DNA of 45,817 nt, taken from positions 1 to 45,817 of the IMG/VR virus record IMGVR_UViG_3300046000_002502; one strand, written 5' to 3'. The translations under genes and the position numbers were made by a program. Numbering within the stretch: the first letter of the stretch is position 1; every line of letters starts with the position of its first letter. The notes under the pieces were generated by a model, which did no database searches, was not told the DNA's origin, and worked only from the letters and a program-made list of their open reading frames with translations. Origin of the DNA: a virus (taxonomy: Duplodnaviria; Caudoviricetes). Shown piece by piece: positions 16,587 to 33,422 of the stretch.

Positions 16587-19076
16587 TCAAGAACCGGGAT
16601 TGATCCCTGTGCCGGTGCTCACAGAAAACTTCTCGCCCGAGATAATCTCAAGCTGGGCGAGATTCATTGCCGTTTGGTTGTCAGAGTCGTTCATCTTCTG
16701 ACGGATCGACAGCTCAGCGGCAGTGCGCTGATCTTCCGACGACTGACGCAGCTGCTCACGCTGGAGATCAGACTGATCCTTCTGCTGCTTGGCTGCGAGC
16801 TCTGCCTGCTTGGCCTGCATCTGTTGACCGAGCTTCTGCTGCTCGATCTGCAGACGCTGCTGGTCAGACTGCGACCTCTGCTGGAGAGCCTGTTGCTGAA
16901 TGCCGACATTCATCTCAGCGATCTTCATGCTGTTGTCAGGCGGCATCGGGGGCTGGGGCTTGAACTGCTGGGCAGCCTCATCAATCTGGGCGAGCTGCTG
17001 CGAGAACTGGCCAAGCTGCTGCTCAATGAACTGCTGAACCTGCATGATCACCTTCGCCTGCTCTTGCGCTTCTTCCTTGATCAGGTTCTCGTTCTGCGCC
17101 CGATCAACAGCCTCATGCGACTCCTGCAGGTAGTAATTCAGCAGATGATCACGCAAATGGGTCGCCATCGGATAGATGTACGTCCTCATAATAACGGGAT
17201 TTGAGCCAAAGACAGGCGATTCAAGGAACTTCATATGAAGCATGATGTGGGCAAGGTGATCTTGCCGTGGCAGGACGTAGACAGGCCTGCCCATGGCGGC
17301 AGCGACGTTCTCGCTGACGGGGTCGACGTCTTCTTTCCCCGGAATAGGCGCCAAAACCTCGTCTGCAGGCACCTTCATAGTGCGCAAGAACATCTCTTCG
17401 ACCTTGCGCGGGTCGTACATGCCGGGGATTGCAGCTGAACGCTGCATAATTGCCTGAATTTGAGCAAAACGCTGCGTTTCGCTGAAAATAGCCGGGTCGC
17501 TGACGGGTACGACGTCCAAAGGACCGTCGAAATCAGTCAGATTGATCTCAATCCCGGCGTCTTGAGCCTCAATGTCTTCTTCGGTCATGTAGGCAGCGTC
17601 AATCCGGTGAAGGATCTTGAAGCAACGCGCCATTGAGTTGTGAAGACGGGAGTGGATCGAGCTAAATACGACCATCCCCTGCTCAATCAGGGCCATCGTC
17701 GTCCCGACGGGCTGGTTCGGGTTGGCGTCAGACAGCTTTTCGAACGAAGTCTGAACTACGCCCTTGCCTGCGTCGACGAGAAACCCGAGAAGGCTGAACA
17801 GAACCGGGCTCGGAGGATTGAAAGGCATCGCCATAGCGATCTTTCGCACGTCGTCAACAAGCGCCCCGCCGTCAATCTCGACGACTTCGGTCGGCTGAAG
17901 GTTGATTGTCTGGCCGTTGGGGCCGCCCTTCAGCTTCAGGAGCGTCGGGATGTTCTGGATGTGGGCAGAATCAAGCAACGCCCGCAGAGCGCCTGTCGCA
18001 GCCCCACTCAGGCCACCGATCATGTGCGTCAGACCGATTGGGTAGGCGCCACGCCAAGGGACGAACGGGAACTCAACGATCCAGTCCATCTCGTTCTTGT
18101 TCTTGTCTTCAACATCCCAGTTCCGATACAGGGACAAGGCTTTGCCGGTGGACTTGTCAACGCTCAGGATGTAGGGCGATGTGCCTTCGTCGAAATCCAA
18201 AAAGGTATAGATTTCGTATATGGCCCGCAGACCGTCTTCGTTGTAGCTGGTCTCCTTGCGGCCCTCGATCTTGTCGTTGGCCTGGCTCGCCTTGCTAAAT
18301 TCAGGATCGCCCGGCTCTCCGAGGTCGACGTCCATATACATGCCGGACTTCACCCGGCGCTGGTATTCCATCTTGGTGATGTACTGGACGTGCGTCTTGC
18401 GCTCAGCGGTGTAGAAGTTGGTGGCCGCAAACGGCAGATAGATGTCGTCGATCGCGACAAATTCTGACGTCGGGCGCCGACGCTGGCCATCCCACATGAA
18501 CTTCATGTATTGACCGCCGCCGAGAGGCAGCTGGGTTGAGAGCTGCTCAAGTTCCGACCGGAACTCAATCATCTGCTCGGTCACTTGCCAGTTCATGAAC
18601 GTGGCCTTGCGCGTGGCCTTGTCCATCTTCGCGCGGTCTTTGTCGCCATAGACCTTGCTCTTCACGGGTCCGTTGGGCGGGAACACTTCTTTCATAAACC
18701 GCGCGCTGAAGTCGACGCACGCCTCGACCAGCATCGGATGAACGACCCTGTTGGCGCCGTTGAACTGAGCGCCGCCTGGTGCGTCGTCGCCCAGACCGGT
18801 GCGGCGCAGACCCTCTTCGTATTGTTTGTCGCGCTTTTCGCGGGCTTCCTTGTCGCGGTCGATCTTATCAAGAAGATCGCTGACCGCCATCTTCAGCTCG
18901 TCCTGATCGACCTCGTCGACGATGTTGGCAAAGTGAGCAAGGCGCTCGCGGTCTTCCTGCTCTGTCTCAAGCTGGACGATTGCGCCACCATCTTCAGTGT
19001 CTTCAACACCCGGCTCATCGTCAGGCAGAGCAAGCGTCTCGCCGACATCCTTGTCGTCGTCCATCGGATCAGCCAT
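16587..19076 (-). CDS. portal protein (podovirus-type, long C-terminal coiled-coil barrel)
   Basis: 829 aa; HPMLVEACVDFSAR, YPIGLTHMIGGL, PVGTTMALIEQG; Q-rich C-terminal coiled coil; between TerL and scaffold. Confidence 0.9.
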   Translation of the reverse strand: MADPMDDDKDVGETLALPDDEPGVEDTEDGGAIVQLETEQEDRERLAHFANIVDEVDQDELKMAVSDLLDKIDRDKEAREKRDKQYEEGLRRTGLGDDAPGGAQFNGANRVVHPMLVEACVDFSARFMKEVFPPNGPVKSKVYGDKDRAKMDKATRKATFMNWQVTEQMIEFRSELEQLSTQLPLGGGQYMKFMWDGQRRRPTSEFVAIDDIYLPFAATNFYTAERKTHVQYITKMEYQRRVKSGMYMDVDLGEPGDPEFSKASQANDKIEGRKETSYNEDGLRAIYEIYTFLDFDEGTSPYILSVDKSTGKALSLYRNWDVEDKNKNEMDWIVEFPFVPWRGAYPIGLTHMIGGLSGAATGALRALLDSAHIQNIPTLLKLKGGPNGQTINLQPTEVVEIDGGALVDDVRKIAMAMPFNPPSPVLFSLLGFLVDAGKGVVQTSFEKLSDANPNQPVGTTMALIEQGMVVFSSIHSRLHNSMARCFKILHRIDAAYMTEEDIEAQDAGIEINLTDFDGPLDVVPVSDPAIFSETQRFAQIQAIMQRSAAIPGMYDPRKVEEMFLRTMKVPADEVLAPIPGKEDVDPVSENVAAAMGRPVYVLPRQDHLAHIMLHMKFLESPVFGSNPVIMRTYIYPMATHLRDHLLNYYLQESHEAVDRAQNENLIKEEAQEQAKVIMQVQQFIEQQLGQFSQQLAQIDEAAQQFKPQPPMPPDNSMKIAEMNVGIQQQALQQRSQSDQQRLQIEQQKLGQQMQAKQAELAAKQQKDQSDLQREQLRQSSEDQRTAAELSIRQKMNDSDNQTAMNLAQLEIISGEKFSVSTGTGINPGS

Positions 19077-22000
19077 TAGTTCCCTCGTAAATCTGGTTAG
19101 CGAGATTTGCTATTTCGTCTGCGTTATAGGGGGTCACGGCTCCGCCTTCGGCGAAGGGGATGCGCAACCCGCCTTTTACAGAGATGTTTGGTTTCATATT
19201 GGTTCCGGGCACCTTGCCGTAGCTGGCATCCAGCATCAGCATGACATCACGCAGCGGGAGCGTAATGCCGCCGCCGATGTCGATGTAAGGCCCAGCCTGA
19301 ACGACACGCCCACGGGCTTGCGAGCCTCCACCCAGATCAAGCTCGAACGGCGCGATGTTGGCTGCGGGGTTAGAGCCAGCAAGCATCTTCTGCAAGTTGG
19401 TGAGCTCATCCTCTGCTAAGGTGGCCTTAACCGGACCACCCTCGTCGTAAGTCTGAACGCGCTGCTTGGGGGACAAGCCGCGTTGCCATTTGCCGACTGC
19501 GTCGCTGTATTGATCTTCGTAATTGTCGAACGGCCCGACGCTCAGGGGGAGGTTATACTTGCGCGCAAGCGTCTCCCACTCGTCGGCTTTCTTCTTCCCA
19601 AGGCTGCTGTAGCCCTTGGAATACGCCTCGCGGGCGAGCTCTCTGGCTCGCTCCTGCATGGCTTCGGAATCACCTTCAAACATCTTTTTGAAGTTGACCT
19701 CGCCGCCTTCGGCATACGCCGCTTGGCCTTTCAGGATGTTCTCCCGCATCTTGGGTGTGATGGTGATGGAGGGGGCGGAGATGGAATGCCTCACCTTCGA
19801 TATAAGCTCCATCTTCTCAGCGTGGGGCAGGGCCGCAACCTCATCAACCGTCATCCCAAGCTCTCGGGCAATGTCGGGGGCTGAGATAGTGTAATTTTGA
19901 ACTGGCAAACGGCCCTTCTCAATCTTCGCCTCTGGGTCGAGCTTCTTCAGCAGCTTGCTCAACTGATTGGGCACAATCTTGTCGTAGTAGGTCTTCATAC
20001 CCTCGCCGCCGACAGATAGGTCTTGGCCAACCAAACTTCTTGTAGCATTCTTATATTCTGTTGCGTGGCTTGTCCCCATATTGCTGTTTGCTTCTTTTGC
20101 CAAATTACTGAAATATCTAGCCCCATATTCGGCAGCAGCTTCTGGCGAATTGGCTACACCCATACCAACATGAGTAGACCATCCCCAAGGAGCAGAGATT
20201 TGATACCTACCTTCTTTTGGAACAACAATAATATCGTTGTTCGTTAGCTTTTCATTAAATACTTTTGGGTTCACTAAATCTTGATCAAGAAGTTTTTTTG
20301 CTACGTCTTTTCCTATCAAATCAGGCAGCTCCCTATCCGCATCAACAATTCTTTTATTTATAACTTGATCTCCTGAGGGGCTGTACGCCCGTAACTTGTG
20401 ACCCCCCGCTGGATCATTTTCCAAAACAAGACGACTAATCTGCTTGCTCAAATCATACCGCTTCGCCTGCTCCGCGCCCGGCGTCCAAACGACCTTGTCG
20501 TAGCCGCCCTTTGCAGCTTCGGTCAGGATGTCTTTCAGCGCAAGGTCGGTCCACGCGGCGGTGTTGGTGACGTAGGGGGCGGCAGGCGGTTTGTCAGTTT
20601 GAATGAGGTTGTTCCTGTTGCGCATGGCGTCAATATAATCTGTTCCAAAATGTTCGTTTCTTGGGTCGCCAAGGACCCAAGAAGGTATGCGCCCGCTTCT
20701 GGCCTCTGCCAAAGCGTTACCCATTTCAATGTCGTTCAACCCTATTGAAGAAAGGTGATTGCGCAAAGCATTGCCTGCATCGTCTAATTTTTCTTGGGCT
20801 TGTTCCACAATTTTTGGATCAAGGTTTTGCTTAAACCCCTCCTTCTTCCCCTTCTGCCCCCAGTCGCTCTGTATCTCCTCAACGTGCAATATCTTTTCGT
20901 TGTTTGGGCCGGTGCGGTCGGCCATGCGGATGTGCGCTAGGACGTTGGGGTCGTCCCAGTGGGAGGAGCGAAACTCCGGCGGCAAATTAGTGTTTTTGCC
21001 AATTAAATCAGTGTGTATTTTGGTGTATTTTTTAATACGTGCTTGGGCCTCAACCGCCTCCGGCGACCCGGGGGCCGCGTTTGCGTAATCAGCAACAGCT
21101 TGAGTTCGAAGAGATTTGGCCTCTGCCGTTTCTTTTCTTAAAGCACCAGATTGGTCGGGTGTCTTTAACAACACCTCGCGGTAGTTCTCGCCGCCGGGGA
21201 GTGTGTACTTCTGGTACTTGGGCGCACCTTGCCCGCCCAGTCCTTCGGCTTCCTCCCACGCCAAGGTAAGGCGCTGGGACTCATCAAAGTTCCCCTGTCG
21301 CTCCGCCCTGTTGATTGCGTTCTGCCATTCATCAGCCGTGCTGTAGGGATACGTATTCTCTTTCTGCCCCAAAACCTTCCGCTCGATCTGCGGCAGGCTG
21401 TCCTTAAAGTAGGCCGCAGCCTCATCCTTGGTGACTTGCGGCTTGCCAGCGAACGTGGACTGGAACCCTTCAAGCTCCACGGGCTTCACGCCCTGCTTCG
21501 CCAACATAGCCGCGAACTGCTCAGGTGTTCCACGCGCTTGCGGCAGCGAACTTGCTACTTCTTCGCCGTAGCTGTACAGGCCAACCGGCGAAAGCTCACG
21601 CACGAAAGCCTCGGCCCCTTCCGTGCCTGCTTGTGCGCCACGCCGTACTGGTCCAGAACCCAGAACCATACCGGAGCCCTTAACCGCCGGAGCCACACCG
21701 CTCATTAGGTTACCGGCCATTTCAATGAACCCCGGCATAGCAAGACGAGCTTCGCCCTCACCGCTAACCATCGGCAAGCCCAAAGAGCGGCGCAGGAACT
21801 TCAGGCGATTGCCTTCAGCGTCAACGGGGTAAGACCCAAACTCGTCAGCCTTAACATCCACTGCGCGATCCGGCAGAGCTAGACCAGACAGATCCATGGC
21901 CGAACGGGCTTGCTCGCTCATACGCGCCTCAAGCAGCTCACGCGGCGACGGAGTAGAATTAGCGGTAACGTAGTCGGAAATCCCCTGCCCTATCCGAGAC

Positions 22001-24612
22001 AACGCACCGCCAATGCCCGTTCCGGCTCTGGGATTAACCGGGGCAGATGCAGCCTTGATGGCCTCCAACGGCGCCATCTCGACGTCTGCCGGAGCCATCT
22101 CAGGAGGCAGCGCCTCAGCTTGGGCTACTTGGCCTTCAAGGATCTTGTCGAGATCTACTGGGCCACCTTCAGCATAGTCCATGCCGAAGCCACCACCACC
22201 GAACCCGCCGTAGCCCCCGCCACCGTAGCCTCCACCACCAAAGCCGGAATTGTCGCCAAAGTTGTAGTTGGTGTTAAGACCGAACCCAGGAGTTGCGCCG
22301 ACATTGCCGAGGCTACCGCCCAGACCAGAGTAATCAAACCCGCCGATGTTGCTTGAGTTGTACCCGCCGACTAAGCCGGGGTTGCTCATGTTGAACTGGC
22401 CGCCGACTACGTTGTTGAAGTCCTGCTGCCAGTTGCTCGCATTGGTTGCAAGCTGGTTCTGCTGAATGGCGTTCTGATCTATTGCGTCGTTTCTGTAAAC
22501 CCGAAAGGTGCTTGGGTCGAAGGTACTAACCCCGAGCCCTGTGTTTGCGCCCGGCGTTACGCTAGGGTTAAACGTATAGTCATAGTCGTCGCCGACAGTG
22601 TTCTGGTCGATTGAGTCGTTTCTATAAACCCGAAGAGAGTTGGCTGTCTCAAGATTGCCAGCCGTTTGATTGGTGTCAAGCGGGTTCACGTCCTCGACGT
22701 AGCGCCTTGCGCCATCGCTCTCGGTGTAACGCCTGCCGTCTTCACCTGTAAAAATCTGATCATTGGCTTCTGCATCATTAAAAGCCTGCAGGGTGGCCGC
22801 TTCCTGCTCGTCGATATAGGTTTGAACGCCATCTTTAAAGATAGACTTCCTACCGTCGTCATCGGTAAAGATCTGAACCTGGGCAAGCACCGTATCGCTC
22901 GGACGGCTTGCTGGTAATGGAGCCCCCCAGATCGCGTTCCTCTGTCCCTGCAAATTGGCGATCTTGACCTGAAGGTCCGGTCGATATTTAGGATTGTAGA
23001 AAGTGTTGTACATGGACAATCCTTCACTACCAGGGACAACCCTGCCAGCATCGCCCTTATAGTTCCTCCATGCTGCCCCTGTTGAGGGTTCGCCAGTAAC
23101 CGGGTCAAACCCGCGCCAATCTGTTTGTGATCCAAGGACTTTGTTCTGGCCAAGAGTAAAATAGTTCCTTAGCTGATCTCTTGCCTGCTGGACAATCGCC
23201 ATCTTGGCAGGGTCTTTGCTGTTCAAAAGGCTATTTATACGACCAGTCGCGTATGCCCCCTCAACTTCGTCCTCGGTTATTTGATCGGCGAGAGTTTTAG
23301 CGAAGCGACCGCTGGGCCTAGTTTTGTCGTAAGCATAGGCGTTCTTCTCAAGGAAGTTGTTAGCGGCGGCTCTGTTGCCGATCGCCTCATAAATTCCCAA
23401 TACTTGGTTTGGGTCATCAGTCAACCCGTATTCCCCAAGCCCGGCTCGGAGCATCATGTCATAATCTTTTTTAGTAGGTGTGTAGCCCCACCATGTCTTC
23501 CAAGGTGCGGCCCCAGTAGCGTCTGTGGCTCTCTGCCCGCCGATAGATTGCTCTAGCTTGGCGTACTGCTCTCTTCCTTCATCGCTGCCAGCAAACTGCT
23601 GACCGATGTCGCTCAAGGACAAATTGTTTTGAGCTGCTGTGTCTTTCCAATACTTCAGGCCGTCATCATCAGCCCCACGATCAAAGTAATCAAGAAAAAG
23701 CTTTTGAAGACCCTCATCCGTGACATCACCACCTCGGGCATAGCCCTGCACGGCGCCGCCTGCACGCTTGGTCAGGAGATCCGTCGTCATGTCGTAGTCG
23801 CCGGTGTTGCCAATAGCTGACTTGACCATCTTGGGATCGTAGACGACGACTTCGCGCGTTCCGTCAGGGTACTTGAGGATGGCGCCGTCGTGGCCCTTGC
23901 TCATAAGATCCCTTGTGAATTCGTCGATCTTGTCTTGGCCCATTGAGCTCATGGCCTTCTTCTCGGCCATCGTGAACTCGTAGGGATTGGTCAGGCGACC
24001 ATAGAGAGGCGTGATGTTCTCGCCCACTGGGCCGCGCTTCATCATGGCGTACAGGTTAGCGCCCGCTGGCGTGTCAAACGCATAGACGCCTCGACCCATC
24101 CAGCCAGTGTCCTTGCGGTCGGGGTGGTTCGTGTCGAAGTATTTGATGTCGCTTTTGGAGCCGTGATAGAGGCGCGTCGGATCTCCGTCCTTCTCGCGCA
24201 GCACCGAGCCTTCCATGAAGTTCGCAAGACCCTTGCGCATTTTGTTGAGCGGGCCAGCCTCAGCCTCCGTCGGATCCATCACCATCAGGCTAGAGCCAGC
24301 AGCCAGCGCCGCCTTGCCAGCCTTGGACGCCGGGCCTAACGGACCCGCAGCCATGAACGCGACGTCCGATGCGGACTGCGGGATCATGAAGTCAAGAGCG
24401 GCGGTCGTGCGGCCAGCGTCTGACGCCAAGCGCCCCGCTATCCTGCGTGCCTGCTCCTCAGTCCCGCCCTGCGCAATCACGTAGTCATAGGTCTGCTTGG
24501 CGATCTCTTCCGGCATACCCATGGTTTTGCCGTAAGCTTGCGAGACAGACTTAGCAGCCTTGTCAGCGTACTTCAGAAGGTAGGATGTGAAGGAGTCATC
24601 ATCTTTGGCCAT
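19069..24612 (-). CDS. large polyvalent (multidomain) protein, probably virion-associated
   Basis: 1847 aa; ART-like domain (LYHGS...GRGVY...EVVVYDP), DUF4214-like helix pair, SleB/hydrolase-like segment, EEIQSDW domain; segments separated by [FY]xxGGxV motifs. Confidence 0.75.
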   Translation of the reverse strand: MAKDDDSFTSYLLKYADKAAKSVSQAYGKTMGMPEEIAKQTYDYVIAQGGTEEQARRIAGRLASDAGRTTAALDFMIPQSASDVAFMAAGPLGPASKAGKAALAAGSSLMVMDPTEAEAGPLNKMRKGLANFMEGSVLREKDGDPTRLYHGSKSDIKYFDTNHPDRKDTGWMGRGVYAFDTPAGANLYAMMKRGPVGENITPLYGRLTNPYEFTMAEKKAMSSMGQDKIDEFTRDLMSKGHDGAILKYPDGTREVVVYDPKMVKSAIGNTGDYDMTTDLLTKRAGGAVQGYARGGDVTDEGLQKLFLDYFDRGADDDGLKYWKDTAAQNNLSLSDIGQQFAGSDEGREQYAKLEQSIGGQRATDATGAAPWKTWWGYTPTKKDYDMMLRAGLGEYGLTDDPNQVLGIYEAIGNRAAANNFLEKNAYAYDKTRPSGRFAKTLADQITEDEVEGAYATGRINSLLNSKDPAKMAIVQQARDQLRNYFTLGQNKVLGSQTDWRGFDPVTGEPSTGAAWRNYKGDAGRVVPGSEGLSMYNTFYNPKYRPDLQVKIANLQGQRNAIWGAPLPASRPSDTVLAQVQIFTDDDGRKSIFKDGVQTYIDEQEAATLQAFNDAEANDQIFTGEDGRRYTESDGARRYVEDVNPLDTNQTAGNLETANSLRVYRNDSIDQNTVGDDYDYTFNPSVTPGANTGLGVSTFDPSTFRVYRNDAIDQNAIQQNQLATNASNWQQDFNNVVGGQFNMSNPGLVGGYNSSNIGGFDYSGLGGSLGNVGATPGFGLNTNYNFGDNSGFGGGGYGGGGYGGFGGGGFGMDYAEGGPVDLDKILEGQVAQAEALPPEMAPADVEMAPLEAIKAASAPVNPRAGTGIGGALSRIGQGISDYVTANSTPSPRELLEARMSEQARSAMDLSGLALPDRAVDVKADEFGSYPVDAEGNRLKFLRRSLGLPMVSGEGEARLAMPGFIEMAGNLMSGVAPAVKGSGMVLGSGPVRRGAQAGTEGAEAFVRELSPVGLYSYGEEVASSLPQARGTPEQFAAMLAKQGVKPVELEGFQSTFAGKPQVTKDEAAAYFKDSLPQIERKVLGQKENTYPYSTADEWQNAINRAERQGNFDESQRLTLAWEEAEGLGGQGAPKYQKYTLPGGENYREVLLKTPDQSGALRKETAEAKSLRTQAVADYANAAPGSPEAVEAQARIKKYTKIHTDLIGKNTNLPPEFRSSHWDDPNVLAHIRMADRTGPNNEKILHVEEIQSDWGQKGKKEGFKQNLDPKIVEQAQEKLDDAGNALRNHLSSIGLNDIEMGNALAEARSGRIPSWVLGDPRNEHFGTDYIDAMRNRNNLIQTDKPPAAPYVTNTAAWTDLALKDILTEAAKGGYDKVVWTPGAEQAKRYDLSKQISRLVLENDPAGGHKLRAYSPSGDQVINKRIVDADRELPDLIGKDVAKKLLDQDLVNPKVFNEKLTNNDIIVVPKEGRYQISAPWGWSTHVGMGVANSPEAAAEYGARYFSNLAKEANSNMGTSHATEYKNATRSLVGQDLSVGGEGMKTYYDKIVPNQLSKLLKKLDPEAKIEKGRLPVQNYTISAPDIARELGMTVDEVAALPHAEKMELISKVRHSISAPSITITPKMRENILKGQAAYAEGGEVNFKKMFEGDSEAMQERARELAREAYSKGYSSLGKKKADEWETLARKYNLPLSVGPFDNYEDQYSDAVGKWQRGLSPKQRVQTYDEGGPVKATLAEDELTNLQKMLAGSNPAANIAPFELDLGGGSQARGRVVQAGPYIDIGGGITLPLRDVMLMLDASYGKVPGTNMKPNISVKGGLRIPFAEGGAVTPYNADEIANLANQIYEGTNG

Positions 24613-31080: not shown

Positions 31081-31142
31081 TTGGACTTCTTTCTGAGTTG
31101 GTTGGGGGCTGTGCCCCAACCTATACGAAGTATAGGGGGGTA

Positions 31143-31269
31143 ACCTCCGCAAACCTCCGCTAATGATTTCAGTTAGTTACGGTATGACCTCCGCAACCTC
31201 CGTACATAGTTCCGCATAACGATTTCAGTGGGTTACGCATCGACCTCCGCAACCTCCGCACAACCTCCG
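31143..31269. repeat. seven ACCTCCG direct repeats (iteron-like)
   Basis: Copies start at 31143, 31153, 31187, 31196, 31243, 31252, 31263, within a ~55-bp imperfect tandem duplication. Confidence 0.75.
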
Positions 31270-32666
31270 TAAGCCTTTTCGGCGTCTAAATAGGCTCCGA
31301 TGACTTGCGCTGCGAGCGGCGGGACGATGGCGTTTCCGTAGGCGCGCAGCTTTCCCACTCTGTTGGGTATCCCATGAGCCAGCAGGGAAATGCCGGGTTG
31401 AGCGCGCCTCGCTTTGCCGTCGGCTCCTGTGAGCCAGATGGCGTTTGACCAATAGCTTTTGCCATGACTTGCAAGTCTGTGATGGCCGTCCGGTTGCTGT
31501 GCGTCCCATCCCTCACGCCCATCCGAAGCTTCATTGCCAAATGTGCTTCCGGCGTTTTGTTGTCCGGCTGAGCGCACGGCGTCGGCCATGTGGCTGTGAT
31601 CTGTTGCGCTACCCAGTTGACGTCCACTTGCCTCTTCTTCCCGTCTGGCGTTTTGCCCGTCGTCGTCATCGCGCCGTCCTTCGGCGTGCGACCACCGTTT
31701 GGCGTTGTCGGCGTCGGCCATGTGGCTAGGTCCGCTACTGCCCGCGCCGTTCTGGGAAGAGACGACTGCTGCCTCGTTGGCAATTGCGATTGCCCCGCCT
31801 TTGCGTCCTCTGCATTCGGCGTCGGCCATGTGGCTGTCATCGCCAGCGCCCTGATCGCCACCAGACCCGCGCTGTTGCCCGCCTCGTTGTTCCCGTTCTT
31901 GGCTGGCGACAAGCTGGTCGGCGTCGGCCATGTGGCTGCTGCCTGACGTGGCAATTGGTCGAGCCTCACCCTCCCATTGGGACCCTCCGTCGCCATACCC
32001 GCGCTGTCCTTCCAGTCGCGTGTTGTTGGCGTCACCCAAGTCGCCGCCATAAATTGAATTTCGTTCCTGAGACGACACCCCGGAGTATATTGTTCTGCTA
32101 CATATTTCTCCCACGCCGCCGCGTCCCCCATTCTCCCCGCATCCTCGACTGTTGGCGTCACCCAAGTTTTCTGCGACCCAGTAGAGGCGGCTCCTGATGT
32201 GGGGGGCGTCCACCGCGCAAGCCGGGATATCGACCCCCCGGCTGGCGTATCCTTCTGCCTCCAGATCAGCTCGCACTCCGTCGAGCCAACCATACCCAGC
32301 CTGTCCCGCAACTTGCTCTCCCATAACGACAGGGGGCCGGACGGCGCCGATGAGACGAAAGAAGTGCGGCCACAGGTGCCTTGGATCGTCGACACCCGCT
32401 CCTTTGCCCGCGACCGAGAACGGCTGGCACGGGCAAGAGCCGGTCCAGATTGGTCTGTCATCGGGCCATCCTGCAAGCCGTAGTGCGTGGCTCCATCCAC
32501 CGATCCCGGCAAAGAAGTGGGCTTGGGTGAAGCCTCTGAGGTCATCAGGTGCAACATCGACAATTGATCTGGTATCGACTTCGCCATCTGCTATGTGCCC
32601 CGCTTTGATAAGGTTACGCAGCCACTGGGCTGCGTAGGGTTCGATCTCGTTGTAATAGGCGGCCAT
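31233..32666 (-). CDS. C5 cytosine DNA methyltransferase, catalytic (alpha-like) subunit
   Basis: FFAGIGG (motif I), GSCPCQPFS (IV), EQV (VI), HIRSRLYWV (VIII), LRAYGNAIV (X); central region is low-complexity with MADA/LGDA repeats. Confidence 0.9.
   Translation of the reverse strand: MAAYYNEIEPYAAQWLRNLIKAGHIADGEVDTRSIVDVAPDDLRGFTQAHFFAGIGGWSHALRLAGWPDDRPIWTGSCPCQPFSVAGKGAGVDDPRHLWPHFFRLIGAVRPPVVMGEQVAGQAGYGWLDGVRADLEAEGYASRGVDIPACAVDAPHIRSRLYWVAENLGDANSRGCGENGGRGGVGEICSRTIYSGVSSQERNSIYGGDLGDANNTRLEGQRGYGDGGSQWEGEARPIATSGSSHMADADQLVASQEREQRGGQQRGSGGDQGAGDDSHMADAECRGRKGGAIAIANEAAVVSSQNGAGSSGPSHMADADNAKRWSHAEGRRDDDDGQNARREEEASGRQLGSATDHSHMADAVRSAGQQNAGSTFGNEASDGREGWDAQQPDGHHRLASHGKSYWSNAIWLTGADGKARRAQPGISLLAHGIPNRVGKLRAYGNAIVPPLAAQVIGAYLDAEKAYGGCAEVAEVDA
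31286..32587 (-). CDS. nested +1-frame ORF: putative MTase specificity (beta-like) subunit with six W[PV]TP modules; start uncertain
   Basis: 433 codons open entirely inside the MTase gene; TWVTPT x2, TWPTP x4; C-terminal LNPAFPCWLMGYPTEW (motif IX-like). Confidence 0.75.
   Translation of the reverse strand: MAKSIPDQLSMLHLMTSEASPKPTSLPGSVDGATHYGLQDGPMTDQSGPALARASRSRSRAKERVSTIQGTCGRTSFVSSAPSGPLSLWESKLRDRLGMVGSTECELIWRQKDTPAGGSISRLARWTPPTSGAASTGSQKTWVTPTVEDAGRMGDAAAWEKYVAEQYTPGCRLRNEIQFMAATWVTPTTRDWKDSAGMATEGPNGRVRLDQLPRQAAATWPTPTSLSPAKNGNNEAGNSAGLVAIRALAMTATWPTPNAEDAKAGQSQLPTRQQSSLPRTARAVADLATWPTPTTPNGGRTPKDGAMTTTGKTPDGKKRQVDVNWVAQQITATWPTPCAQPDNKTPEAHLAMKLRMGVRDGTHSNRTAITDLQVMAKAIGQTPSGSQEPTAKRGALNPAFPCWLMGYPTEWESCAPTETPSSRRSQRKSSEPI
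31577..32167. repeat. six module-boundary direct repeats in the MTase locus
   Basis: CGGCGTCGGCCATGTGGCT at 31577, 31709, 31817, 31919; TGTTGGCGTCACCCAAGT at 32024, 32150; periods 132/108/102/108/126 bp. Confidence 0.9.
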
Positions 32667-32667
32667 A

Positions 32668-33321
32668 TCAAAACGCCTCTGGGTTGCCGGTGAGCGGTGG
32701 CACCTTCATCCATGCCGCGACGCCCGAATTGACCTTGATCAGGGTATCCCAGTCATGGCTCATGTTGCGGGGTTGAGGCACGAACCAGCCAAACCCATCA
32801 AGGTAACCGCCAAAGAATATCTGGCCAGTCCACGTCCTGAACAGCACTTGCCTACCCGAGGCGGGCATGTCCGTTGAGGTGTAGATCCAGACGGGGGTTG
32901 GCTGCGGGGAAGGAGGAGGAACGGGCTTTTCCGTATTGGGGTCACGGAGCGCAAGCCCGGCGCAAGATAAAACACCCTCAATCTCTTCTAAGCACTTTCG
33001 CCCAAAGTTCGGGACGCGAAGAAGCTCCTTGGAGCTACACTCAACGACGTCGCCAATGGTATATAAGCGATCATTCATCAGTGTATTGTAAAGCCGAGTG
33101 CTTAGCTCAAGTGACGGAACAGGGGTGTCTAAAGTGATCTTATGTGGGTGTGTTATGTTGGTTTCCTGTTGAGCTTTTTTCTCTAAAAACGGAACGTATT
33201 CCTTACCGTTTGTCATGTTGGTATTCCTTTGTTTTGCACCCTCTACATACCGGAATTTATTTCCGGGATCAACAGGGGAGTTAGGTGCCTTGACTTCCCC
33301 CACGAATTGAATGTCGGGCAT
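32668..33321 (-). CDS. RNA polymerase alpha-CTD domain protein with C-terminal DUF551-like domain (start uncertain)
   Basis: LELSTRLYNTLMNDRLYTIGDVVECSSKELLRVPNFGRKCLEEI; WIYTSTDMP...VAAWMKVPP. Confidence 0.8.
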   Translation of the reverse strand: MPDIQFVGEVKAPNSPVDPGNKFRYVEGAKQRNTNMTNGKEYVPFLEKKAQQETNITHPHKITLDTPVPSLELSTRLYNTLMNDRLYTIGDVVECSSKELLRVPNFGRKCLEEIEGVLSCAGLALRDPNTEKPVPPPSPQPTPVWIYTSTDMPASGRQVLFRTWTGQIFFGGYLDGFGWFVPQPRNMSHDWDTLIKVNSGVAAWMKVPPLTGNPEAF

Positions 33322-33406
33322 TAACGGGTATTAACGGGTATTAACGGGTATTGACGGGTATTGTGCGGTAATGTCCGTTAATACCCGTTGCTAATCCCCG
33401 TTAATA
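33320..33406. repeat. 10-bp iteron-like repeats, direct and inverted (candidate origin)
   Basis: ATTAACGGGT x3 plus ATTGACGGGT (33320-33359); inverted copies at 33375-33389 and 33397-33406; just downstream of primase-helicase. Confidence 0.75.
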
Positions 33407-33422
33407 TGCGTTGCCCTGTATT

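Follow-up and report, generated by a model that had tools for sequence, protein, structure and literature searches.

The locus described here lies in the virus record IMGVR_UViG_3300046000_002502, which comprises 45,817 bases (the window, analysed over its whole length) and has a completeness of 84% according to CheckV. Terminase, portal, capsid, primase-polymerase and GcrA-like genes were found in the window, the last of which hints at an alphaproteobacterial host. On the minus strand two genes are nested, the smaller one (beta) being read wholly within the larger one (alpha) at +1. The matches to this methylase stretch are lake-water metagenomes, and RNA data sets are absent among the matches listed. 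No stable RNA structure was found around the start codons of alpha and beta (z -0.41). The features of the locus are the following:

31233..32666, minus strand: alpha, 477 aa, predicted C5-cytosine methyltransferase catalytic chain (PF00145, phrog_363, fold model)
31286..32587, minus strand: beta, 433 aa, nested at +1 in alpha; N-terminal part, six modules, motif-IX-like end
31461..32144, minus strand: alpha residues 175-402, stop-free filler above the array (pLDDT <50; 49% identity against 82% in beta)
32039..32164, minus strand: module 1 (type T34), beta 142-183, 126 nt; missing in frame from the X7 contig
31931..32038, minus strand: module 2 (T01), beta 184-219, 108 nt; commonest type, with a TPTTRDWKD pattern like Bacillus TRD units
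31829..31930, minus strand: module 3 (T02), beta 220-253, 102 nt; this type makes up 38 of 403 modules
31721..31828, minus strand: module 4 (T23), beta 254-289, 108 nt
31589..31720, minus strand: module 5 (T14), beta 290-333, 132 nt; first in the X5 contig, last in the X4 contig
31448..31588, minus strand: module 6 (T09), beta 334-380, ~141 nt with the end set by rule; the complex model places its WPTP junction against alpha
31334..31414, minus strand: motif-IX-like segment of beta, LNPAFPCWLMGYP, double-coded with the conserved segment of alpha before motif X
31577, 31709, 31817 and 31919 (31577..31937), plus strand: four identical 19-bp junction repeats, CGGCGTCGGCCATGTGGCT, exact match
32024 and 32150 (32024..32167), plus strand: two identical 18-bp variant repeats, TGTTGGCGTCACCCAAGT, exact match

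Alpha is matched by PF00145 with E 3.9e-12 (46.7 bits against a cut-off of 22, residues 74-165) and by phrog_363 with E 4e-79, and its model resembles HhaI/HaeIII (Foldseek E 5.6e-8). The motifs GSCPCQ, GEQV, RSRLY, FFAGIGG and GNAIV can be read in its sequence, and the class features of PF00145 are all present (PC of motif IV, motifs VI and VIII, FxGxG, motif X, Rossmann-like large domain). On sequence grounds alpha belongs to the C5-cytosine DNA methyltransferases (PF00145), and methyl transfer is predicted. The canonical I-to-X order of PF00145 enzymes was not found in alpha. Its motifs are permuted to II-III-I-IV-VI-VIII, filler and X, the numbers being labels assigned from what we take to be the consensus. 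The Glu-containing motif was located ahead of FxGxG in all 119 scoreable matches (132 loci). The C5 methylase permutations described in the cited part of the literature begin in the variable region, unlike that of alpha (PMC5944983).

The model of alpha is confident over most of residues 1-170 and over 445-467, and pLDDT drops below 50 over 175-402 and 426-443. Over the array, the outer frame contains no stop and the third frame contains 11. Residues 405-445 of alpha are well conserved regardless of the module content. Since this segment overlaps the motif-IX-like end of beta, its conservation in alpha has another cause. At three related loci (L047, L038 and L021) the distance from beta motif IX to alpha motif X is 521, 485 and 170 nt (usually 50), which means that extra sequence is read there in alpha alone. 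A second C5 methylase with the canonical motif order was observed at L098:4467-5393, with a +1 beta that ends in the same motif and contains three WxTP modules. The module system thus occurs with a second alpha subfamily as well.

Beta is matched by phrog_1008 (E 1.9e-26), and no Pfam match was obtained. Its array consists of six different WxTP modules of 34-47 aa. The original prediction had delimited an array of TRD-like modules in a methylase; the array lies where it had been placed, but the feature is larger and consists of two nested minus-strand genes (31233-32666 and 31286-32587). Repeats spaced at multiples of 3 had also been seen in it, and these are confirmed, with module lengths of 126, 108, 102, 108, 132 and ~141 nt. 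On translation the repeat gave TW[PV]TP when read in the inner frame and HMADA/LGDA when read in the outer one, as had been noted. The junction repeats stand at the starts of WxTP modules, and neither CGGCGTCGGCCATGTGGCT nor TGTTGGCGTCACCCAAGT has further copies in the whole window. From the wobble frequencies at the junctions of other loci, the chance that four 19-mers are identical at all 5 wobble sites is ~4e-5. Downstream of the array, the residues N, P, W, L, G and P of the motif-IX-like segment are invariant in 58 sequences, which were chosen by that motif.

The likening of the locus to a protein-coding repeat-spacer array did not hold up. At the wobble sites, WPTP junctions of one genome agree with an identity of 0.44 (32 pairs, those of the window included), and junctions of different genomes with 0.41 (1,508 pairs). 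Elsewhere, 4 viral contigs contain a single exact copy of the 19-mer each, and 4 other loci a single exact copy of the 17-mer each; only in the window does the latter occur four times. The exact DNA repeats are therefore peculiar to the window copy, and the analogy fails. The perfect copies in the window probably come from repeated recombination among close relatives. In all family members, the WxTP junction motif supplies a short shared sequence.

Selection over the array was assessed from like modules at different loci. In 281 pairs from 30 loci, the differences per beta codon position 1/2/3 amount to 0.19/0.13/0.43, and the amino-acid identity is 0.82 in beta versus 0.49 in alpha. In the catalytic region the pattern is reversed (0.64 in beta, 0.83 in alpha). 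A beta wobble T before AA, AG or GA, which was counted in loci pre-selected as open (though 40 of 42 are open), occurs in 0 of 574 cases in the array versus 370 of 2,062 elsewhere. Selection acts on beta over the array, and alpha is only kept open there. That the inner frame carries the selected modules and the outer one filler, as had been predicted, is thus borne out by the 82% versus 49% identity between like modules. The locus is a clear case of a region that evolves fast in one frame while it is held stop-free in another.

The family to which the locus belongs is very large and mostly unannotated. A search with beta gave 1,217 matches among 8,000 candidates, and the family comprises 7,357 clusters (50% identity) at E<=1e-30 and 31,359 at E<=1e-3. 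Through beta 55 loci were found, 42 of them with all three marker motifs. In 40 of these 42, no stop interrupts alpha between motifs IV and X, and beta is at +1; the remaining two are apparently one frameshifted contig in duplicate. An independent sample from prokaryotic genomes was fetched with the catalytic motifs of alpha alone, without using beta. It contains 80 loci, and 61 of the 62 that could be scored have the nested layout. By pattern count these carry 1-7 modules (mode 3), a lower bound because one locus (L107) was undercounted. The patterns missed 18 alpha-found loci, of which 15 were read by eye, and all 15 carry a beta with modules. Single-module betas occur at five loci across both sets, and the module is located just ahead of the motif-IX-like segment. 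In the betas that were read, at least one module is present in every one except L033 (strict pattern).

A fusion of alpha and beta into a single chain was not found; the search for longer proteins gave two matches, both long arrays, which is weak evidence. The betas P0123 and P0124 carry about 11 and 9 modules when read by eye. In four long betas that were read, the extra length is a nuclease-like insertion rather than an alpha fusion. Such a nuclease-like domain (HNH-type by eye) was observed in the N-terminal part of beta in L031:1775-3103, P0084, P0171, P0203, P0208 and P0249, and in L031 alpha stays open across the insertion. Actinophage methylases have been described with recombination and hidden HNH insertions (PMC9957025, PMC11855218), the latter of which resemble those in beta, as far as the cited part extends (PMC11855218). 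Target-recognition modules are not mentioned in the searched parts of these two papers.

The annotated cytosine methylase of phage epsilon15 (AY150271, L058:1113-2282) hides a four-module beta, with types like T01 and T24. In both records that were opened, this phage and a Klebsiella prophage region, beta is unannotated. Around the loci, genes for phage replication and recombination, integrases and other methylases predominate. Among 75 flanking proteins (the longest neighbour of at least 180 aa on each side; 75 of 85 listed), type II restriction-enzyme models gave no match. Two helicase-like neighbours match type I/IV or other defence models. No member linked to a restriction enzyme was found among these neighbours, so none of the modules could be assigned a known site.

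Module number, content and order differ among relatives, as the original prediction allowed: 112 distinct architectures were counted in 121 betas (403 modules, 91 types), so they are not fixed across homologs. Type T01 accounts for 41 of the 403 modules and has 18 copies in 61 prophage loci. Of the 82 pairs of types found together two or more times, 27 exist in both orders. When the cores are at least 85% identical, only 4 of 138 pairs share an architecture, and modules at least 90% identical were found on cores below 70% identity in 259 pairs. In a larger set, 850 modules of 292 proteins fall into 224 types with an estimated total of ~340, counts that depend on the chosen clustering threshold. 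The same type does not occur twice in any of the 292 proteins (mean 18.5 and minimum 7 in 1,000 shuffles). The number of modules among relatives ranges from 1 to about 11.

On a core tree with 117 leaves, T01 requires at least 18 gains or losses for 38 carriers, T09 at least 9 for 11 and T03 at least 26 for 27. The types T02 (at least 7 for 38 carriers) and T04 (at least 5 for 24) are more clade-bound. Some types have a preferred position, with T03 last in 25 of 27, T16 first in 6 of 6 and T04 last in 0 of 24 cases. Two loci, L002 and L012, match the window at 85-94% identity for kilobases to either side, yet L002 has one module in common with it and L012 none. At three joints in lake contigs, the net lengths missing are 126, 444 and 141 nt and correspond exactly to module 1, modules 1-4 and module 6; these three are the joints with known intervening letters, and five others with unknown letters between their sides were excluded. 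The lake contigs were matched at 88% likeness and are probably related phages rather than proven variants of one population. In the X7 contig, a stretch of 119 nt that matches module 2 without a difference adjoins a core that shows 29 differences over 339 nt. Gain, loss and reordering affect modules as whole in-frame units. The earlier proposal that the phage acquires, swaps or drops units by means of its DNA repeats stands as far as in-frame loss of whole modules is concerned, which the lake contigs display, and falls for dedicated repeats as the device.

The modules were also compared with known TRDs. The multispecific Bacillus phage methyltransferases (phi3T, SPR, rho11s) use consecutive ~40-aa TRDs, one per target. 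As a reference served 120 relatives of the SPbeta enzyme, 77 of which yielded a total of 217 Thr-anchored units. These were reduced to 19, with which 231 non-redundant junction windows of the WxTP family were compared column by column. The commonest residues from the Thr on are L-T-A-T-D-G-K-G in the Bacillus units and P-T-A-S-D-(G)-K-G in the WxTP family. At positions +3 to +11 past the Thr, the likeness amounts to 0.364 bits per column (control -0.07 +/- 0.085), although the anchor pattern and the span of positions were picked once the sequences had been viewed by eye, and the reference comprises no more than 19 units. This value was reached by 0 of 2,000 controls drawn from 336 pattern-matched unrelated windows and by 0 of 2,000 within-window shuffles. 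An RDYK/DWK-type pattern is present in 4 of the 19 Bacillus units, 22 of the 231 WxTP windows and none of the 336 controls. The M.SPR unit HTLSASDWRG lines up with TPTTRDWKD of module 2. The segment ahead of the Thr has no likeness to the Bacillus units, being outscored by 1,898 of 2,000 controls. According to the portion of the source cited, the base-reading residue R240 of HhaI lies upstream of T250, which contacts the backbone (PMC11879396).

Profile methods gave no link to known TRDs. The module HMM scored 0.3 bits on the SPbeta enzyme, within the range of shuffles, when run on the SPbeta and phi3T enzymes; hhalign of the modules with known TRDs remained below 1% probability; a profile of the last module with motif IX had no match in PDB sequences; and a search of the ESM Atlas returned nothing that connects the modules to known TRDs. 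Standard profile methods also miss motif IX and are thus insensitive here. The likeness of the modules to Bacillus TRD units is regarded as genuine but incomplete evidence that they are TRDs. In canonical C5 enzymes the TRD is located just ahead of motif IX, according to the cited part of PMC5944983, and the single-module betas put their module at that place, before the motif-IX-like segment.

A complex of alpha and beta was modelled with a score of 0.88 (best control 0.01). This lies above the mark, which 116 of 157 solved complexes attain, as do 2 of 215 mismatched pairs. The model runs agree in at least 43% of contacts, with a partner pLDDT of at least 46. Confident contacts involve beta residues 82-125, 329-341, 373-382 and 392-419, and beta 405-407 touches alpha 443-450. 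Among the modules, only the WPTP junction of the last one (beta 329-341) is confidently placed. Halves of a split enzyme can pass by their likeness to solved single-chain enzymes, so the model supports that alpha and beta bind but does not show it. The model of beta alone is of low confidence (mean pLDDT of the modules 56), and a wide fold search with it was uninformative (best Z 2.5).

The conserved end of beta may be motif IX, as suggested by its position, a weak likeness and its modelled packing on motif X. Its LNP.F..WLMG.P scores only -2.8 bits against LQGFPENW of EcoHK31I, and no significant profile match to the canonical motif IX was obtained. Motif X is present in the alpha of the window, and an IX-like motif is not.

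Among known systems, M.EcoHK31I comes closest in layout. Its beta lies inside alpha in another frame, with motif IX on beta and the TRD on alpha, and it recognizes YGGCCR, as given in the cited part of the literature (PMC2836561). The gene (L141), located with a primer from the supplement of PMC2836561, is present in 81 of 5,426 E. coli genomes; in the one genome opened it stands beside a NotI-family endonuclease, and it encodes an alpha of 309 aa with a beta of 176 aa inside it at +1. Both systems are C5 methylases with the second chain wholly inside alpha at +1. However, alpha of M.EcoHK31I contains motifs I-VIII and X in canonical order, whereas that of the window is permuted. Beta of M.EcoHK31I contains no WxTP module and scores below 0 bits against the beta and module profiles (-0.9 bits with the beta profile). 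A TRD on alpha, typical of M.EcoHK31I, was not found in the window either, where the variable region of alpha is unselected filler. Finally, M.EcoHK31I is monospecific and paired with a restriction enzyme, whereas the window locus is a phage orphan with its variable, selected part in beta. Membership of the M.EcoHK31I family was dropped once the actual gene had been read, since its beta is not a detectable homologue (-0.9 bits). Judged by the sequences, the layout is shared and the membership fails. A further oddity was observed at L138:1504-3492, directly before a nested alpha/beta family member: a C5 methylase is fused there to a second methylase domain, and an LSQVLE motif like that in beta of M.EcoHK31I can be read in a stretch of it that is open at +1.

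The temperate Bacillus phages provide the other half of the comparison. Their enzymes, which are orphans used against restriction, carry several TRDs in a row within a single chain as a defence against many restriction systems, according to the cited part of PMC12707154. With M.SPR, M.SPbeta and M.phi3TI the window shares tandem, different units of ~35-45 aa before motif IX, with a conserved Thr and in varying number; in 77 Bacillus relatives, 1-5 units per protein were found between motifs VIII and IX. The post-Thr pattern is in register, and both are orphan phage enzymes. In contrast, the Bacillus enzymes are one polypeptide in one frame with T-L, whereas the window has two nested open frames with T-P. 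Their multispecificity has been shown experimentally, as far as the cited source extends (PMC12707154), and that of the window is predicted. The two-chain, nested-gene architecture is what sets the window enzyme apart from them; it had been missed in the original reading of a multispecific methylase, of which the module array stands.

Other phage methylases are more distant. In cluster O mycobacteriophages (Corndog gp6/gp7), overlapping split methylase genes were described, and whether two products are made was left open in the cited account (PMC4351075). They are likewise phage C5 methylases in two overlapping frames, with the C-terminal helices in the second frame, but the cited account does not mention a module array (PMC4351075), and they are likened here by description only. 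Prophages of Paracoccus and Sinorhizobium encode relaxed-specificity m5C methylases of ~700 aa (PMC3925955, PMC6536676, PMC5537653). These are also prophage orphan C5 methylases, and they partly protect many sites, as stated in the portions cited. The Paracoccus enzymes were considered as experimental support and rejected, as they belong to another family: Pyei1_p05 is single-chain, has no module match and contains 18 and 5 stops in its two other frames. Two further papers provide general background only in their cited parts (PMC11954522, PMC3483164). Nesting (M.EcoHK31I) and TRD arrays (Bacillus) have each been published separately, and the window family combines both. No account of a nested subunit with shuffled WxTP modules was found in the literature searched, REBASE, most subscription journals and older scans being outside reach.

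Taken together, the locus probably encodes a two-chain multispecific anti-restriction C5 methylase with one site per module, up to six sites in all. Alpha, as the SAM-binding and catalytic domain, would assemble with beta into one cytosine-C5 methylase. Translation of alpha would have to continue across the array as far as motif X, which would give the chain a long disordered loop there, for which the open frame is observed and the disorder predicted. Beta would contribute a docking N-terminal part (binding predicted), the modules and motif IX. Each WxTP module would recognize a separate short DNA site; in consequence up to six sites may be methylated, which would likely let the phage escape several host restriction enzymes. 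Modules would likely be exchanged by ordinary recombination with co-infecting phages or prophages at the short WxTP-coding junction. Duplicates may be unseen because a second copy of a type would presumably add no further site.

An unlikely alternative is that the modules bind host proteins of restriction or other defence systems and not DNA, while a fixed or relaxed specificity is set by the C-terminal segment of alpha. It would accommodate the lack of a profile-level TRD match, the TRD of M.EcoHK31I in alpha (in the cited part of PMC2836561), the conservation of alpha 405-445 whatever the modules and the more than 200 types, a large number for short DNA sites. The in-register match past the Thr to Bacillus TRD units, including the RDYK/DWK-type pattern, argues against protein binding. 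So does the location of the modules directly ahead of the motif-IX-like segment, with at least one per beta except L033 (strict pattern), and the conserved segment of alpha is otherwise explained by its overlap with beta motif IX.

It is more doubtful still that at any time a single module is in use (probably that adjoining motif IX), with the rest as a stored reservoir and rearrangement as the switch of specificity. The confident contacts at the last WPTP junction only (beta 329-341) and the preference of some types for the last place (T03 in 25 of 27) would fit such a switch. However, non-last modules are as conserved as last ones (identity 0.82 in both, 312 and 55 pairs), with the third positions most variable in non-last ones. 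A number of types stand almost exclusively at the first or an internal place (T16 first in 6 of 6, T04 last in 0 of 24), and the Bacillus enzymes use arrayed TRDs in one chain, according to the cited part of PMC12707154. That the array is a functionless neutral or selfish tandem expansion via DNA repeats can hardly be entertained: four identical 19-bp repeats are far beyond chance (~4e-5), but all units are different and never duplicated, purifying selection acts in one frame, modules at least 90% identical sit on cores below 70% identity (259 pairs), exact repeats are not general in the family, and the codon-position pattern largely refutes it.

With the multispecific two-chain methylase as the preferred explanation, we lean towards a wider reading in which phages and prophages of many bacterial groups would share an exchangeable, mostly unannotated library of several hundred DNA-recognition modules of 35-45 residues, one site each. 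If this is true, the anti-restriction range of a phage could be read from its module string and would change with it. Should one module equal one site, the 224 types (estimate ~340) would form a natural dictionary from peptide to DNA target; phage counter-restriction would be predictable from sequence; plug-in specificities would be available for methylase engineering; and the TRD-array principle of a few Bacillus phages would extend to a global scale.

Several further observations concern the rest of the window. The motifs GGCC, CGCG, CCWGG, AGCGCT, CGGCCG and GCCGGC (0 versus 38 expected) are strongly depleted throughout, a depletion that cannot be tied to particular modules. Repeats of the AACCTCCGCA type with a period of 56 bp stand at and just beyond the end of the methylase gene (31142-31276). 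Directly upstream of it, at 32668-33321, a protein with an RNA polymerase alpha C-terminal domain is encoded, and a cluster of 10-bp direct and inverted repeats that adjoins the primase-polymerase gene (33315-33412) is likely a replication origin. Next to the portal gene, at 19069-24612, lies the gene for a protein of 1,847 aa with an ART-PolyVal ADP-ribosyltransferase domain.
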